DNA of 28,159 nt. Origin: Candidatus Saccharimonadota bacterium. GTDB taxonomy: Bacteria; Patescibacteriota; Saccharimonadia; UBA4664. Within the stretch, counting starts at the first letter, position 1; each line of letters opens with the position of its first letter. Where the stretch lies: contig JAQZBT010000001.1 of assembly GCA_029237755.1 (NCBI GenBank), positions 1 to 28,159 of the forward strand. The letters run 5' to 3'. The notes below the pieces were generated by a model that saw only the letters and a program-made list of their open reading frames with translations, had not been told where the DNA came from and searched no databases. Positions 1 to 2,275 of this stretch are shown piece by piece. A program made the position numbers and the translations under genes.

Positions 1-635
1 GGCAGGTGAGTGCGGGGTAGATCTTCGACCCGGTGGACGAGCCGCCAGATCTTCATCCGGTCGCCGTAGGCCTTCTTGCCTTCGGTGATGACCGTGGACC
101 ACCCTCGGAAGGAGAGCGGGTGATACTCACGCAGTCCCGGATCAGCGCGCACGATGACGAAGCCGTCTGCCGGCAGCGCTTCGAGGCCGTGATGGACACG
201 GTCGCGGCCGAGCCAAACATGGTCGTCGTTCTCGAGTCCAGGATGAACCACCACTCGCAACGGCGGCCACGAGCGTCTGAGAAGTTCGAGCCGCGCGTCG
301 AAGTCGGGCGACATCGCCGTGAGCAGACCGAGCCCCAGGGGTCGGTCTTCAGCTTCGTACATCTGGACGGTGCCGGCTGGCGGATAGAAGGCATCTTCGG
401 ACGGTTGATAAAGAGTGACGCCTTGACCGTCCTGATCCACCAGTGTGCAGTCCAGGCGCCAGATGCCCGAAGGTACACCGAGCAGGCGCATGGCGGCCGT
501 GTGCTCGGTCGTGAAGGCGTTGGCGGCTTGGACGACGAGGCGAGAGGCCTGCCGGACGATGTCGCGGCTGAGTGGCAGGGTGACGTTGGACACGGTCGTT
601 TTCCAACCGACGTCGATGTCGTGAGTGGGGAGCAT
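1..635 (-). CDS. Hypothetical protein, possibly ATP-grasp-like ligase; partial, runs off the left edge; not in the ORF track
   Basis: ATG at 635 with GGAGG SD (644-640) 4 nt upstream. The frame is open to the window edge for about 211 codons (MLPTHDIDVGWKTTVSNVTLPLSRDIVRQASRLVVQAANAF...). The motifs WRLDC and MYEAEDRPLGLG resemble the R-x-D and E-x-[N/E]...PxGxG motifs of glutathionylspermidine-synthase-like ATP-grasp proteins; the product call is inference. Confidence 0.8.
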   Translation of the reverse strand, partial: MLPTHDIDVGWKTTVSNVTLPLSRDIVRQASRLVVQAANAFTTEHTAAMRLLGVPSGIWRLDCTLVDQDGQGVTLYQPSEDAFYPPAGTVQMYEAEDRPLGLGLLTAMSPDFDARLELLRRSWPPLRVVVHPGLENDDHVWLGRDRVHHGLEALPADGFVIVRADPGLREYHPLSFRGWSTVITEGKKAYGDRMKIWRLVHRVEDLPRTHL

Positions 636-687
636 GGTGCCTCCAGGGGTCGTTGGATTGTGGGGTACGCTTTTTGCCTGCCCGCTA

Positions 688-712
688 ACAGAAAACCGCT
701 CCGGAGGAGCGG
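688..712 (-). terminator. Intrinsic terminator (attenuator) upstream of the left-edge gene
   Basis: Minus strand CCGCTCC-TCC-GGAGCGG (712-696, 7 bp) followed by TTTTCTGTT. Confidence 0.75.
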
Positions 713-742
713 GGCTGTGTGCGGGTTTGGGCAAGGGTATGG

Positions 743-817
743 TTAATGACCGCGCACAGCATCAACCAGCCACCAAGCGGTGACAGCAGCGTTGAAGCTG
801 TGAGAGATGGAAACCAT
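743..817 (-). CDS. Leaderless 24-aa leader peptide with tandem Trp (MVSISHSFNAAVTAWWLVDAVRGH)
   Basis: ATG at 817 lies 6 nt after a TAATAT -10. TGG TGG at 775-770, TAA at 745-743, followed by protector and terminator hairpins. Confidence 0.75.
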   Translation of the reverse strand: MVSISHSFNAAVTAWWLVDAVRGH

Positions 818-823
818 GGCGGT

Positions 824-852
824 ATATTAATGCCAAAATTATGAATTAGCAA
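824..852 (-). promoter_or_regulatory. Sigma70-type promoter of the Trp leader unit
   Basis: TTGCTA (852-847), 17 nt spacer, TAATAT (829-824), 6 nt, ATG. Confidence 0.7.
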
Positions 853-863
853 AGGGTAGGGCA

Positions 864-886
864 GGGAGCGGACCGGGTCCGCTCCC
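864..886. terminator. Perfect 10-bp hairpin between the two attenuated units; probable terminator of the 84-aa gene
   Basis: GGGAGCGGAC-CGG-GTCCGCTCCC lies 25 nt after the stop of the 84-aa gene; no immediate U-tract. Confidence 0.5.
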
Positions 887-911
887 CACGGAGTGAATGT
901 TGCTCGAGCCT

Positions 912-1166
912 CTAGCGGCCACTCCTCGTGCCTTTCAGCCTGCCGCCACGTTTGGGACGGCCTTTCTTTTTGGCGGGCGCCGATTGGTCGCTGATATCCA
1001 CGCGGCCAAACTTGCGCATCTTGCGCAGCGCGTTGTCGTCCGGCGGGCTGATGAGAGGAGCAGTGGCTTCGGACGCGACGAGTTGGGGGCTGACGAACCC
1101 TTGGGTGGCGTTGATGGCGGCTTGCACCGTCAGGTTGGAGCGGAACTTGATCGTGCCGTAGTGCAC
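912..1166 (-). CDS. 84-aa hypothetical protein with a Lys/Arg-rich C-terminus
   Basis: Track ORF 912..1193. I prefer the GTG at 1166 (MHYGTIKFRSNLTVQ...) because GAAGGA lies just upstream and the track's TTG at 1193 sits in the terminator U-tract. Confidence 0.7.
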   Translation of the reverse strand: MHYGTIKFRSNLTVQAAINATQGFVSPQLVASEATAPLISPPDDNALRKMRKFGRVDISDQSAPAKKKGRPKRGGRLKGTRSGR

Positions 1167-1191
1167 AGTGAATCCTTCCGTAGATGGGTAC

Positions 1192-1214
1192 AAAAAAGCC
1201 GCTGCTGTGAGCGG
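1192..1214 (-). terminator. Intrinsic terminator (attenuator) upstream of the 84-aa gene
   Basis: Minus strand CCGCT-CACAGC-AGCGG (1214-1199) followed by CTTTTTT. The stem is short (5 bp). Confidence 0.6.
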
Positions 1215-1244
1215 TGCCTGGCTGGTCGGTGGGTGAGGGTTGAA

Positions 1245-1319
1245 TCAAGCAGCGTAACCAGGCACACGCAGACACATGTTGCAGCAGGGCATCATGGTGA
1301 CTGAGTAATGGCTGGTCAT
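1245..1319 (-). CDS. Leaderless 24-aa leader peptide rich in Met/Cys (MTSHYSVTMMPCCNMCLRVPGYAA)
   Basis: ATG at 1319 lies 6 nt after a TAACAT -10. Codons 9-16 are ATG ATG CCC TGC TGC AAC ATG TGT. TGA at 1247-1245. Same length and spacing as the Trp leader. Confidence 0.7.
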   Translation of the reverse strand: MTSHYSVTMMPCCNMCLRVPGYAA

Positions 1320-1325
1320 GGCAAG

Positions 1326-1354
1326 ATGTTAACGTTTGTTGAGTAAGCGGTCAA
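1326..1354 (-). promoter_or_regulatory. Sigma70-type promoter of the Met/Cys leader unit
   Basis: TTGACC (1354-1349), 17 nt spacer, TAACAT (1331-1326), 6 nt, ATG. Confidence 0.75.
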
Positions 1355-1414: not shown

Positions 1415-2275
1415 TCATGAACTTTGCGGGAGCTCTCGCACGGAGTAATCCCGTAATGACGCGTCCATGAAGTCAGTGCGAATGCCGACCAATCCGGAAC
1501 CGGTGATCGGCGGCATGCCGGAAGTGCTACTATCGGTGGCCTGGGCCACTTGCTGCCACAGGCCATTGCCATCCACGTCCACCCACAGGGTGATTGAAAC
1601 GGTCCGGTTGGCGTTGGTTGTGACGGCACTGCGCAGTCCGATCCATCGGTCCTCCGGCAAGAGGTTGGGATTCTTGGTCCGGTCGTATTCAGCTCCGTCG
1701 AACACTGGAACCTCCGCCAACGAGTCCGCGTAGACGCCGCCAACCTTTTTCTTGATGACGGCGCTGCCGTCTACTCTGAACCCGGTGTAGTAGAGTGTGT
1801 CGCCTTGGTCACCGTAGCGGCTCATGGAGAACACTCCGCTCCAGGCGTCGCGCTCGGGATCTTTGGAGAGGTTGATCTGGTCAACCCGGAAGTAGAACTG
1901 TTGCTCCGGGTTCTGGTACTCCTGCCGAAGTACGAGCCGGAACAGATTCTGTGGGTGACGTCCTCGGTCGGCGCCGCTGTTACTGGCGTACGCCCGGTGC
2001 CAGGGATCCTCAGGGTCGAGCGACCCTTGGATGGTCTGGGCGACGCCGTCGCGAATGTCGAGGCGAGCGCCGGAGTTGAGCCACCAGTTGGGGTCAGCAC
2101 TCTCCTCAATGGGGTTGGATTCCTCTATCACCCGCTGGTCTTGAAACTTGTCGCTGAATGACTTGGCGGGAGAGGGGCTGGGCGGAGGAGGGGTGGTGCC
2201 GTCGCGGGTGCAGGCGCTTAGCAACACCAGTATGCCCACCACGGTGAGCACAACTACTTGCGTGCGTCTGGTCAT
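1415..2275 (-). CDS. Putative lipoprotein with a beta-rich (ConA/jelly-roll-like) extracellular domain
   Basis: 286 aa. Basic n-region, hydrophobic stretch, lipobox L-S-A-C (Cys22), Pro-rich linker, GAAGGA SD. The fold call is inference from the aromatic, beta-strand-rich pattern. Confidence 0.75.
   Translation of the reverse strand: MTRRTQVVVLTVVGILVLLSACTRDGTTPPPPSPSPAKSFSDKFQDQRVIEESNPIEESADPNWWLNSGARLDIRDGVAQTIQGSLDPEDPWHRAYASNSGADRGRHPQNLFRLVLRQEYQNPEQQFYFRVDQINLSKDPERDAWSGVFSMSRYGDQGDTLYYTGFRVDGSAVIKKKVGGVYADSLAEVPVFDGAEYDRTKNPNLLPEDRWIGLRSAVTTNANRTVSITLWVDVDGNGLWQQVAQATDSSTSGMPPITGSGLVGIRTDFMDASLRDYSVRELPQSS

Follow-up and report, generated by a model that had tools for sequence, protein, structure and literature searches.

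Paralogous leader units with predicted leaderless starts form a probable family of amino-acid-reading transcription attenuators in Saccharimonadia

The first 1,354 nucleotides (nt) of contig JAQZBT010000001.1 from a Candidatus Saccharimonadota bacterium carry, on the minus strand, two consecutive units, each composed of a promoter, a short open reading frame (ORF), a hairpin with a U-tract and a gene preceded by a Shine-Dalgarno (SD) sequence. The window, that is the whole stretch of 28,159 nt that was analysed, is the entire contig C4 of a metagenome-assembled genome (MAG) of 983 kb in 122 contigs (71% complete). Our analysis makes it probable that these units 1 and 2 are copies of a transcription attenuator that depends on the ribosome and acts on leaderless mRNA; this genome has four paralogous copies, and at least 17 occur in one family of the Saccharimonadia. 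An initial annotation, made from the sequence alone, had described them as twin attenuators of a bacterium of the candidate phyla radiation (CPR), one reading Trp and the other Met and Cys. To our knowledge, Patescibacteria are largely devoid of amino-acid biosynthesis and of classical regulators, and we know of very little work on gene regulation in these mostly uncultured bacteria with few recognisable regulators.

Every coordinate of the initial annotation was confirmed on the minus strand, and the offset of 502 nt between the two units holds for all elements (Table 1). The -10 element is separated from the ATG by six nt in both cases, CTTGCC before ATG 1319 in unit 1 and ACCGCC before ATG 817 in unit 2. 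The stem-loops at 1214-1199 and 712-696 are followed by CTTTTTT and TTTTCTGTT, respectively, and the gene of unit 2, gene C, starts with ATG 635 behind the SD sequence GGAGG. Only 25-53 nt lie between the U-tract and the start codon in units 1 and 2, where a generic scan shows no promoter-like site. Compared to proteome frequencies, six of the eight codons 9-16 of unit 1 specify Met or Cys (P~1e-7), including the Cys codons C12-C13 at 1286-1281, while the adjacent Trp codons 15-16 of unit 2 (775-770) have P~4e-3.

The peptides of the units had been considered dissimilar apart from the regulatory codons, which is wrong since the units are homologous at the DNA level, and they are no twins, since this genome has four units and the family 17. 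Alignment of five units, the four found here and one of genome G004, gave a mean column identity of 56%, with GCnGTGnnnGG (the last ORF codons), AAACC and CACCGCTC as common blocks. With a covariance model of this core, 12 genomes of a single Saccharimonadia family yielded the 17 homologous units, and a second model had matches in 14 of 25 other genomes, weaker ones counted; outside this family, 27 genomes of the order gave only weak, terminator-like matches to the element. All 17 members possess a strong promoter of the sigma-70 type with a TTGACA-like -35 element, a spacer of 16-18 nt, a TAnnnT hexamer and, 6-7 nt further on, a start codon (16 ATG, one GTG). Their ORFs of 22-37 codons remain open despite many insertions and deletions and stop inside or at the conserved hairpin, and a hairpin with a U-tract lies just upstream of an SD-led gene in every member. 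The typical peptide has a polar N-terminus, then a run of Ile, Leu, Val, Met or Phe, and then [GE][PS]A[VA]xGQ. Unit 3 and G022-2 carry C-x-C-x-C in place of the hydrophobic run, and unit 1 (MMPCCNMC) and unit 2 (AWW) are unique variants in the family. The fraction of the five hydrophobic residues is 0.67 in frame versus 0.30 and 0.17 out of frame. The earlier proposal that one attenuator chassis was duplicated and re-tuned on leaderless transcripts is supported and very probably correct.

These coding features also bear on the alternative that the terminator is governed by a folded leader RNA without coding function, which would act like a riboswitch or bind a protein or tRNA, while the ORF has no role. 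Such an RNA would agree with the 3' two-thirds of the element, which form a conserved, covarying hairpin with an apical stem-loop and the terminator adjacent to it, but it would leave unexplained that all 17 members keep a start codon at the predicted transcription start site (TSS), a frame open through indels and a stop inside or at the hairpin. Moreover, the amino-acid bias is frame-specific, it is the coding block and not a ligand pocket that varies between paralogs, and a scan of positions 1-2600 against Rfam (E up to 10) returned chance-level matches only (E >3, far under the gathering scores). We therefore regard a purely non-coding leader as very unlikely.

Folding of the alignment with RNAalifold revealed a consensus helix between GCGGUG.CCUGG, located in the last ORF codons, and CCAG..CACCGC, and the 3' end of the latter is the start of the terminator 5' arm. 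The helix of unit 1 has a free energy of about -26 kcal/mol, and its 3' arm ends with four nt that also begin the terminator 5' arm, which has five bases in all. Due to this overlap the helix of unit 1 is an antiterminator, and its earlier assignment as a 'protector' hairpin had to be rejected. A separate 1:2 protector or pause hairpin was not apparent either, as no conserved helix upstream of the antiterminator was seen in the alignment folds. On the 17 sequences, 82% of the cells of the helix are paired and compensatory changes occur in four pairs; a covariation score of 0.143 was obtained, compared to at most 0.066 in slid controls, and was reached by 1 of 500 shuffles. The apical hairpin with the stop codon is retained in 12 of the 17 members with differing sequences. 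Antiterminator and terminator are nearly isoenergetic, and the minimum free energy structure favours one or the other depending on the member. Changes from Val to Ala codons in the 5' arm are compensated on the 3' arm, which argues for selection on the RNA and not on the end of the peptide.

The same compensated, amino-acid-changing substitutions speak against small functional peptides, either precursors of ribosomally synthesized and post-translationally modified peptides (RiPPs) or membrane peptides whose core varies and whose 'AVxGQ' end is conserved, for which the hairpin and U-tract would merely be a leaky terminator. While the hypervariable, Cys-rich or hydrophobic middle between more conserved ends and the adjacent genes for ATP-grasp proteins, a GCS2-like ligase, a peptidase and a deacetylase would suit such peptides, the 'AVxG' codons are an arm of the conserved helix and a peptide gene precedes each enzyme gene with no space for another promoter. 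In addition, the same layout occurs before genes for cystathionine gamma-lyase and for S-adenosylmethionine (SAM) hydrolase with leaders rich in the matching amino acid, and no RiPP-specific family was found. The RiPP-precursor idea, which arose from the variable Cys-rich cores and the ATP-grasp neighbours, was rejected as the leading explanation, and functional peptides of either type appear highly improbable.

Transcripts that start at the ATG appear to be a real feature of this uncultured organism. Among promoters of the form TTGnnn-17-TAnnnT in the genome, an ATG at a distance of 6-7 nt opens at least 100 codons in 21 of 36 cases, whereas at other spacings about 20% of the ATGs do so genome-wide. 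Given this peak for long ORFs, the ATG 6 nt after the -10 element predicts a leaderless transcript for unit 1. In unit 1 and in the units of G017, G007, G020, G016 and G023, no more than 17-40 nt separate the U-tract from the next start codon, which leaves no room for a second promoter, and these genes consequently depend on read-through of the terminator.

When complete leaders were folded at equilibrium with a ribosome moved along them, the result was misleading, since the local terminator usually wins, and mask folding was used in its place. Here, the leader up to the terminator loop was folded with a ribosome footprint from -15 to +12 relative to the A site at each codon, and the readout was the pairing of the terminator 5' arm at the stage when the 3' arm is still to be synthesised. 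In most units the terminator 5' arm remains sequestered up to a sharp switch point and becomes free once the A site has moved beyond it. The sensor window was defined as the five codons before this point without reference to the peptide, and the windows obtained are listed as last permissive codons in Table 1. Special codons at the modelled switch point are what a starvation-sensing attenuator would predict. The sensor of unit 1, earlier assigned to M15-C16-L17, is placed by mask folding at C12-C13 together with M10 (window M10-N14), and the view that the regulatory codons of units 1 and 2 end at the same position finds no support. A mutually exclusive, ribosome-dependent antiterminator fits unit 1 and most relatives, but not unit 2. 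For unit 1, ribosome-mediated transcription attenuation on a leaderless mRNA is well supported, and Cys would be the main amino acid sensed.

We propose that transcription begins at the A of the ATG and that a 70S ribosome would translate the leader of 22-37 codons. Its last 7-8 codons (GCG GUG CCU GGU, 'AVxG') would constitute the 5' arm of a long hairpin, the 3' arm of which (CCAG..CACCGC) takes in the first bases of the terminator 5' arm, with the stop codon usually in the apical hairpin. A ribosome that reaches the stop would melt the antiterminator, and formation of the CCGCUCC/GGAGCGG hairpin with its U-tract would then terminate transcription before the SD-led gene. If the ribosome is stalled a few codons upstream by uncharged tRNA, the antiterminator would stay intact and RNA polymerase would enter the gene. 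The variable block just 5' of the hairpin 5' arm would determine the amino acid that is read, namely Cys (with Met) in unit 1, Cys in unit 3, and Ile, Leu, Val, Met or Phe in unit 4 and most relatives; unit 2 and further leaders of the gene C family would read Trp or aromatic residues. A possible role in this small, host-dependent bacterium is the derepression of amide-ligase and deacylase genes when a single amino acid is short. The sequence analysis shows the anatomy and homology of the units, a conserved ORF and promoter, a conserved choice between antiterminator and terminator with some covariation, special codons at the modelled switch point and an association of leader type with the gene that follows. 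Start site, translation, stalling, direction of the response and physiological role are what we infer under this mechanism.

Several points weigh against it. The TSS at the ATG, the 3' ends and the translation of the leaders are predictions, the covariation is modest as most of the helix is invariant in sequence, and any link of the regulated genes to Cys or Trp is hypothetical. The Cys/Met codons of unit 1 (CUGCUGC...UGUG) are also complementary to the loop and 3' arm of the terminator, and part of their bias could be structural. No clear switch was obtained for G004 and G003, and the switches of G025 and G016 are odd. Further points concern unit 2, whose helix ends 1 nt before the terminator without overlap, although it is homologous in position to the family antiterminator, with a shifted register. 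The unit 2 terminator has a probability of 0.99 in every modelled ribosome state, and mask folding found no switch point. Three candidate antiterminators of unit 2 were rejected. The pairing AAACCCGC:GCGGUUUU of the initial annotation reaches only -6 kcal/mol versus -12.5 kcal/mol for the terminator, and pairing in the family register gives only 4 of 6 pairs and no coherent switch. An extension between the WW codons and the terminator is the sole pairing that reaches the terminator 5' arm, yet a Trp-stalled ribosome would cover the Trp codons. A working antiterminator was hence not found in unit 2, and attenuation by this unit is suggested by homology only.

With its terminator predicted in all ribosome states and not overlapped by the helix, unit 2 could instead be a decayed or constitutive copy, in which the promoter and a fixed, partly efficient terminator set a low level of gene C and the WW pair is a relic. 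The unit 2 promoter matches 8 of 12 consensus positions and falls under the threshold of the generic promoter scan, and the U-tract (UUUUCUGUU) is weak. However, the ORF, the geometry and the helix with 10 of 11 bp are intact and the Trp codons lie where the paralogs have their sensor window. Elsewhere, gene C homologs follow attenuators that look functional and carry codons for Trp or aromatic residues where the switch point lies. Decay of unit 2 is therefore considered unlikely.

Gene C belongs to a family of ~300-amino-acid (aa) proteins that occurs across Patescibacteria and comprises 344 clusters at 50% identity in a profile search; it has no Pfam family, and a word-based search with gene C matched only itself. 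The AlphaFold model of the homolog L021:355-1338 (pLDDT 96) matches YjfC/YgiC, glutathionylspermidine synthetase and glutathione synthetase (Foldseek probability 1.0, TM about 0.5), and gene C is thus predicted to have the fold of a glutathionylspermidine-synthetase (GspS)/YgiC/YjfC-like ATP-grasp ligase. An M20 deacylase gene usually lies 3' of gene C in relatives, and sometimes a PIG-L, MreB or TrpR-like gene is adjacent. The downstream genes, described as unknown before, can accordingly be recognised as GspS-like ATP-grasp ligase, PIG-L, GCS2-like and M20 genes, and only gene B under unit 1 remains an orphan. The earlier statement that the regulated genes are not classical biosynthesis genes is supported.

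Upstream DNA was available for 14 gene C homologs across the phylum, from genomes with G+C contents (GC) of 0.34-0.60, and a short ORF with hairpin and U-tract precedes 13-14 of these 14; many of the leaders show TTGACA-17-TAnnnT-6/7-ATG. Trp codons had been expected in homologous loci and are indeed kept in 11 of 14 gene C leaders compared to 4 of 15 others (Fisher p=0.009), and aromatic residues amount to 15.9% versus 5.9% (p=2e-6). Both p-values are overstated, as the sequences are kin, and outside the family the leader ORF was taken to be the longest one with an ATG start that stops ahead of the terminator. Most gene C leaders also have a single Trp in a semi-conserved N-W-F or Y-W-F motif, which could reflect a function at the peptide level and not codon sensing, a further point against our mechanism. 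Exceptions are the leaders of L160 (His/Met-rich), G025 (Arg/Phe-rich) and L161 (eight Phe, no Trp). Since leaders of differing flavour precede gene C homologs, the sensor seems exchangeable within this gene family. Sequences of the other-flavour leaders are MQVPMLNSSSKRRRFAFAMRRTFFDA for the Arg/Phe type (G025, L020 8500-8800) and MKQKNRAMHSHMMHITHGAFSL for the His/Met type (L160, from a metagenome). On a metagenome contig (L158 1-247), a gene of the Trp_repressor family (PF01371) was seen just upstream of a gene C homolog with the leader MVTQAFSNRISKNTLMWAAFYYFTY...

Nascent-peptide arrest offers another explanation of the lone Trp. In E. coli, TnaC, which contains a conserved W-F-N, acts together with free Trp when the ribosome is at the stop codon and prevents Rho-dependent termination. 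If free Trp or another aromatic amino acid stalled the ribosome on the nascent peptide in a similar manner, the same RNA switch would respond with the opposite sign, i.e. with induction by abundance. The gene C leaders keep a motif around the usually single Trp over a GC range of 0.34-0.60 (QFNWYF, QFNYWF, IINWFY, QNWFM, SFNAAVTAWW), and a lone Trp codon would be a weak starvation sensor, but the motif is short and is missing in G004, G025, L160 and L161. The CC, MMM, CxCxC and I/L/V runs look like plain codon runs with freely varying flanking residues, and Cys and Met leaders precede enzymes that release Cys and Met, which fits induction by shortage. A short leader, a conserved Trp in a small motif and a terminator-controlled gene downstream are shared with TnaC, a likeness we take as a lead only, and intrinsic terminators with an RNA alternative distinguish the units described here. 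We judge such arrest quite unlikely and retain a starvation-reading attenuator as the preferred explanation.

Further leaders of the clade agree with a response to shortage, since Cys and Met leaders stand before enzymes releasing Cys or Met. Independent, non-homologous leaders with Cys codons, MIATSSATCCRACCL, MISVRATFICCTLSCT, MRSNFRQNTFCCASCT and MKHPTTISTCRPTSCT, occur before cystathionine gamma-lyase genes in four genera, and in two genomes this gene sits behind another gene in an operon. Relatives of the leader on contig C51 (L142, L143 and L144, from three other genera) have homologous Cys leaders (..CC..SCT) before the same gene or an operon containing it. Leaders with MMM or MM precede SAM hydroxide adenosyltransferase-like genes in two genera. 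The homolog of the C52 gene in G023 (L034) has a SAM hydroxide adenosyltransferase C-terminal domain and an MM leader of its own, and an enzyme that releases Met from SAM would thus be under a Met-codon leader. The leader on contig C70, placed before an aminotransferase gene, may be an attenuator of the Ala/Leu type.

Classical leader-peptide attenuators include trpL, pheL, hisL, ilvL and leuL of E. coli and trpL and aroR (Phe-Tyr-Phe) of Corynebacterium glutamicum (PMC11802643). As in our units, they contain a short ORF in which the amino acid to be sensed is encoded and an intrinsic terminator before the regulated gene; for unit 1 and most relatives, the folding model also gives an antiterminator that excludes the terminator depending on where the ribosome stops. 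The hydrophobic class resembles ilv and leu leaders while the gene C class resembles aroR and trpL. In contrast to these systems, the switch described here is apparently two-state, either antiterminator or terminator, and no additional 1:2 protector or pause hairpin was detected. A leaderless mRNA is predicted, and the host has a reduced CPR genome. The outputs are ATP-grasp and GCS2-like ligases, M20 and PIG-L deacylases and an orphan in place of cognate biosynthesis, and one chassis with swapped sensor codons is present in four copies at one locus. Mycobacterial leaderless short ORFs with polycysteine tracts, the 'Cys ribulon', act by translational control, in which a stalled ribosome opens a structure hiding the downstream ribosome-binding site, and no terminator hairpins were found there (Canestrari et al., 10.1101/834739). 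For Actinobacteria, Seliverstov et al. (2005, PMC1262725) predicted Cys leaders upstream of cys and cbs genes, likewise lacking terminators. Our units resemble these systems in a short Cys-codon ORF as first cistron, here with a predicted leaderless start, and in several independent loci for one sensed amino acid, and they differ by a canonical hairpin with a U-tract upstream of a free SD sequence. Unlike polycysteine leaders, unit 1 has three Cys codons only, two of them adjacent, mixed with Met. The Cys leader on contig C51 before cystathionine gamma-lyase parallels the Bifidobacterium cbs leader (PMC1262725).

Full-text searches found no leader-peptide attenuation in Saccharibacteria or Patescibacteria, in line with the initial annotation, to whose author no such description was known. 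New are the host group, the apparently two-state design on leaderless mRNA, the four-fold reuse of a chassis in one island and the ligase and deacylase outputs. If our reading is true, ribosome-mediated attenuation on leaderless mRNAs would be a main route by which CPR cells read amino-acid supply. It would also assign a physiological cue (Cys, Trp/aromatic, Met or branched-chain) to uncharacterised conserved enzymes, chiefly the GspS-like ligase and its M20 partner, and present a clean natural case in which duplication of a regulatory RNA module was followed by re-tuning through few codon swaps. More tentatively, and with somewhat more doubt than confidence, one can envisage a patescibacterial 'ribulon' of leaderless leaders tuned to Trp/aromatic residues, Cys, Met, branched-chain residues and perhaps His/Arg. 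These would gate ligases and deacylases (GspS-like, GCS2-like, M20, PIG-L, cystathionine gamma-lyase, SAM hydrolase) that free that amino acid from host-derived conjugates or store it. One lineage would have re-tuned the chassis four times within a single 6-kb island, and the leaders would report limiting nutrients. They could then serve as sequence-only indicators of the amino acids that limit an episymbiont in its host or habitat.

Table 1. Features of units 1 and 2 in the window, of the units on contig C28 and of other leaders, with the last permissive codons obtained by mask folding
Feature	Position	Strand	Description	Last permissive codons
Unit 1 promoter	1326..1354	-	-35 TTGACC 1354-1349, 17-nt spacer, -10 TAACAT 1331-1326	
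Unit 1 leader ORF	1245..1319	-	24 codons, MTSHYSVTMMPCCNMCLRVPGYAA, stop 1247-1245	MPCCN (codons 10-14, 1292-1278); switch at codon 15
Unit 1 antiterminator	1211..1269	-	5' arm GCGUGUGCCUGGUU 1269-1256 (ORF codons 17-22) : AGCCAGGCACCGC 1223-1211	
Unit 1 intrinsic terminator	1189..1214	-	CCGCU-CACAGC-AGCGG 1214-1199, about -7 kcal/mol, then CUUUUUUGUA	
Gene B	912..1166	-	84-aa basic orphan protein, GTG 1166, SD GGAAGGA	
Hairpin without U-tract	864..887	-	perfect 10-bp GC hairpin between gene B and unit 2 promoter, read from the sequence	
Unit 2 promoter	824..852	-	-35 TTGCTA 852-847, 17-nt spacer, -10 TAATAT 829-824	
Unit 2 leader ORF	743..817	-	24 codons, MVSISHSFNAAVTAWWLVDAVRGH, stop 745-743	
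Unit 2 helix	714..760	-	GCUGUGCGCGG 760-750 : CCGCACACAGC 724-714, 10/11 bp, about -16.6 kcal/mol	
Unit 2 intrinsic terminator	687..712	-	CCGCUCC-UCC-GGAGCGG 712-696, -12.5 kcal/mol, then UUUUCUGUU	
Gene C	1..635	-	316 aa; last 105 codons on contig C28 (L012 1-351)	
Unit 3	contig C28		TTTACA-17-TATTCT-6-ATG, leader MTAIAFTSQTRACVCACAIAVVGSDV, terminator, then PIG-L family gene	CVCAC
Unit 4	contig C28		TTGACA-17-TATTCT-7-ATG, leader MISTSANIMWFFLLLGSAVPGQDS, terminator, then GCS2-like/M20/alpha/beta-hydrolase operon	MWFFL
Genes under unit 4	contig C28		467-aa GCS2-like, M20 (ArgE/DapE-type) deacylase, alpha/beta hydrolase	
Hairpins without U-tract before the four units	window 887-864, about 1400-1365; L012 about 385-405, 1440-1470			
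Cystathionine gamma-lyase leader	G000 contig C51 (L013), ATG at plus-coordinate 2542	-	leaderless 15-codon ORF MIATSSATCCRACCL and terminator, then cystathionine gamma-lyase/synthase-family gene	CCRAC
SAM-hydrolase-like leader	G000 contig C52 (L014), ATG at plus-coordinate 288	-	leader METNARIAAATEAMMMRSATAEVLA and terminator; gene cut by contig end	MMMRS
Aminotransferase leader	G000 contig C70 (L015), ATG at plus-coordinate 3442	-	leader MKRPTSILLAAALPTLA and strong terminator, 20 nt before class I/II aminotransferase gene	
Family relatives				LVVLI, IIVLF, IMVLY, LLVVL
Leaders of gene C homologs				NYWFT, WFYLT, YFYFT, WHYLR, SHMMH

The sequence was contained in DNA sequencing runs of three soil metagenomes only, and no RNA run was among those listed. 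MreB of the window shares 95% identity with its counterparts in Candidatus Saccharimonadia MAGs, which bears out the earlier assignment to a CPR bacterium of this group. The only gene under unit 1, gene B, shows coding-like codon usage with a G+C content of 0.80 at third codon positions (GC3). It could be assigned to no Pfam or NCBIfam family, no homolog was found, a word-based search matched it only to itself, and it has no similarity to the small proteins encoded 3' of the G022 unit of the Cys type. A gene for a 286-aa protein (1415-2275, minus strand) with an N-terminal hydrophobic segment followed by a Cys, as in lipoproteins, is located between MreB and unit 1; it has no Pfam or NCBIfam family and is absent near MreB in 80 related genomes. 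Searches of positions 1-2437 by blastn and tblastn found no homolog around MreB in 80 public Saccharimonadia/CPR loci, and the element adjoins MreB only in G020 and G016. A DNA search of the whole region against 60 relatives had gene C of G004 as sole match (70% identity), and BLAST against its own genome gave no paralog of the region; the paralogous units came to light only when the adjoining contig was read and the covariance model applied. The GCS2-like protein as query returned no related loci.

The adjoining contig C28 has a 35-nt overlap with the left end of the window and carries the minus strand onward. This join is backed by an independent contig from the Joint Genome Institute (JGI) that is 100% identical over 3255 nt across it. 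The order on C28 is the end of gene C, then unit 3, then unit 4, which results in four insulated modules in series within one island of ~6 kb. A GC-rich, perfect hairpin without U-tract lies 10-25 nt upstream of the -35 element of each of the four units. These hairpins possibly, and in our view probably, act as terminators or insulators for the upstream gene and thereby separate the modules. Positions 673-5400 of contig C28 (L012) encode a PIG-L (BshB/MshB/Mca-like) deacetylase, a distant GCS2-like protein of 467 aa, an ArgE/DapE-type M20 protein and an S33-like alpha/beta hydrolase. Together with gene C, the genes of the island look like a set for the metabolism of a small thiol or a gamma-glutamyl-type conjugate.

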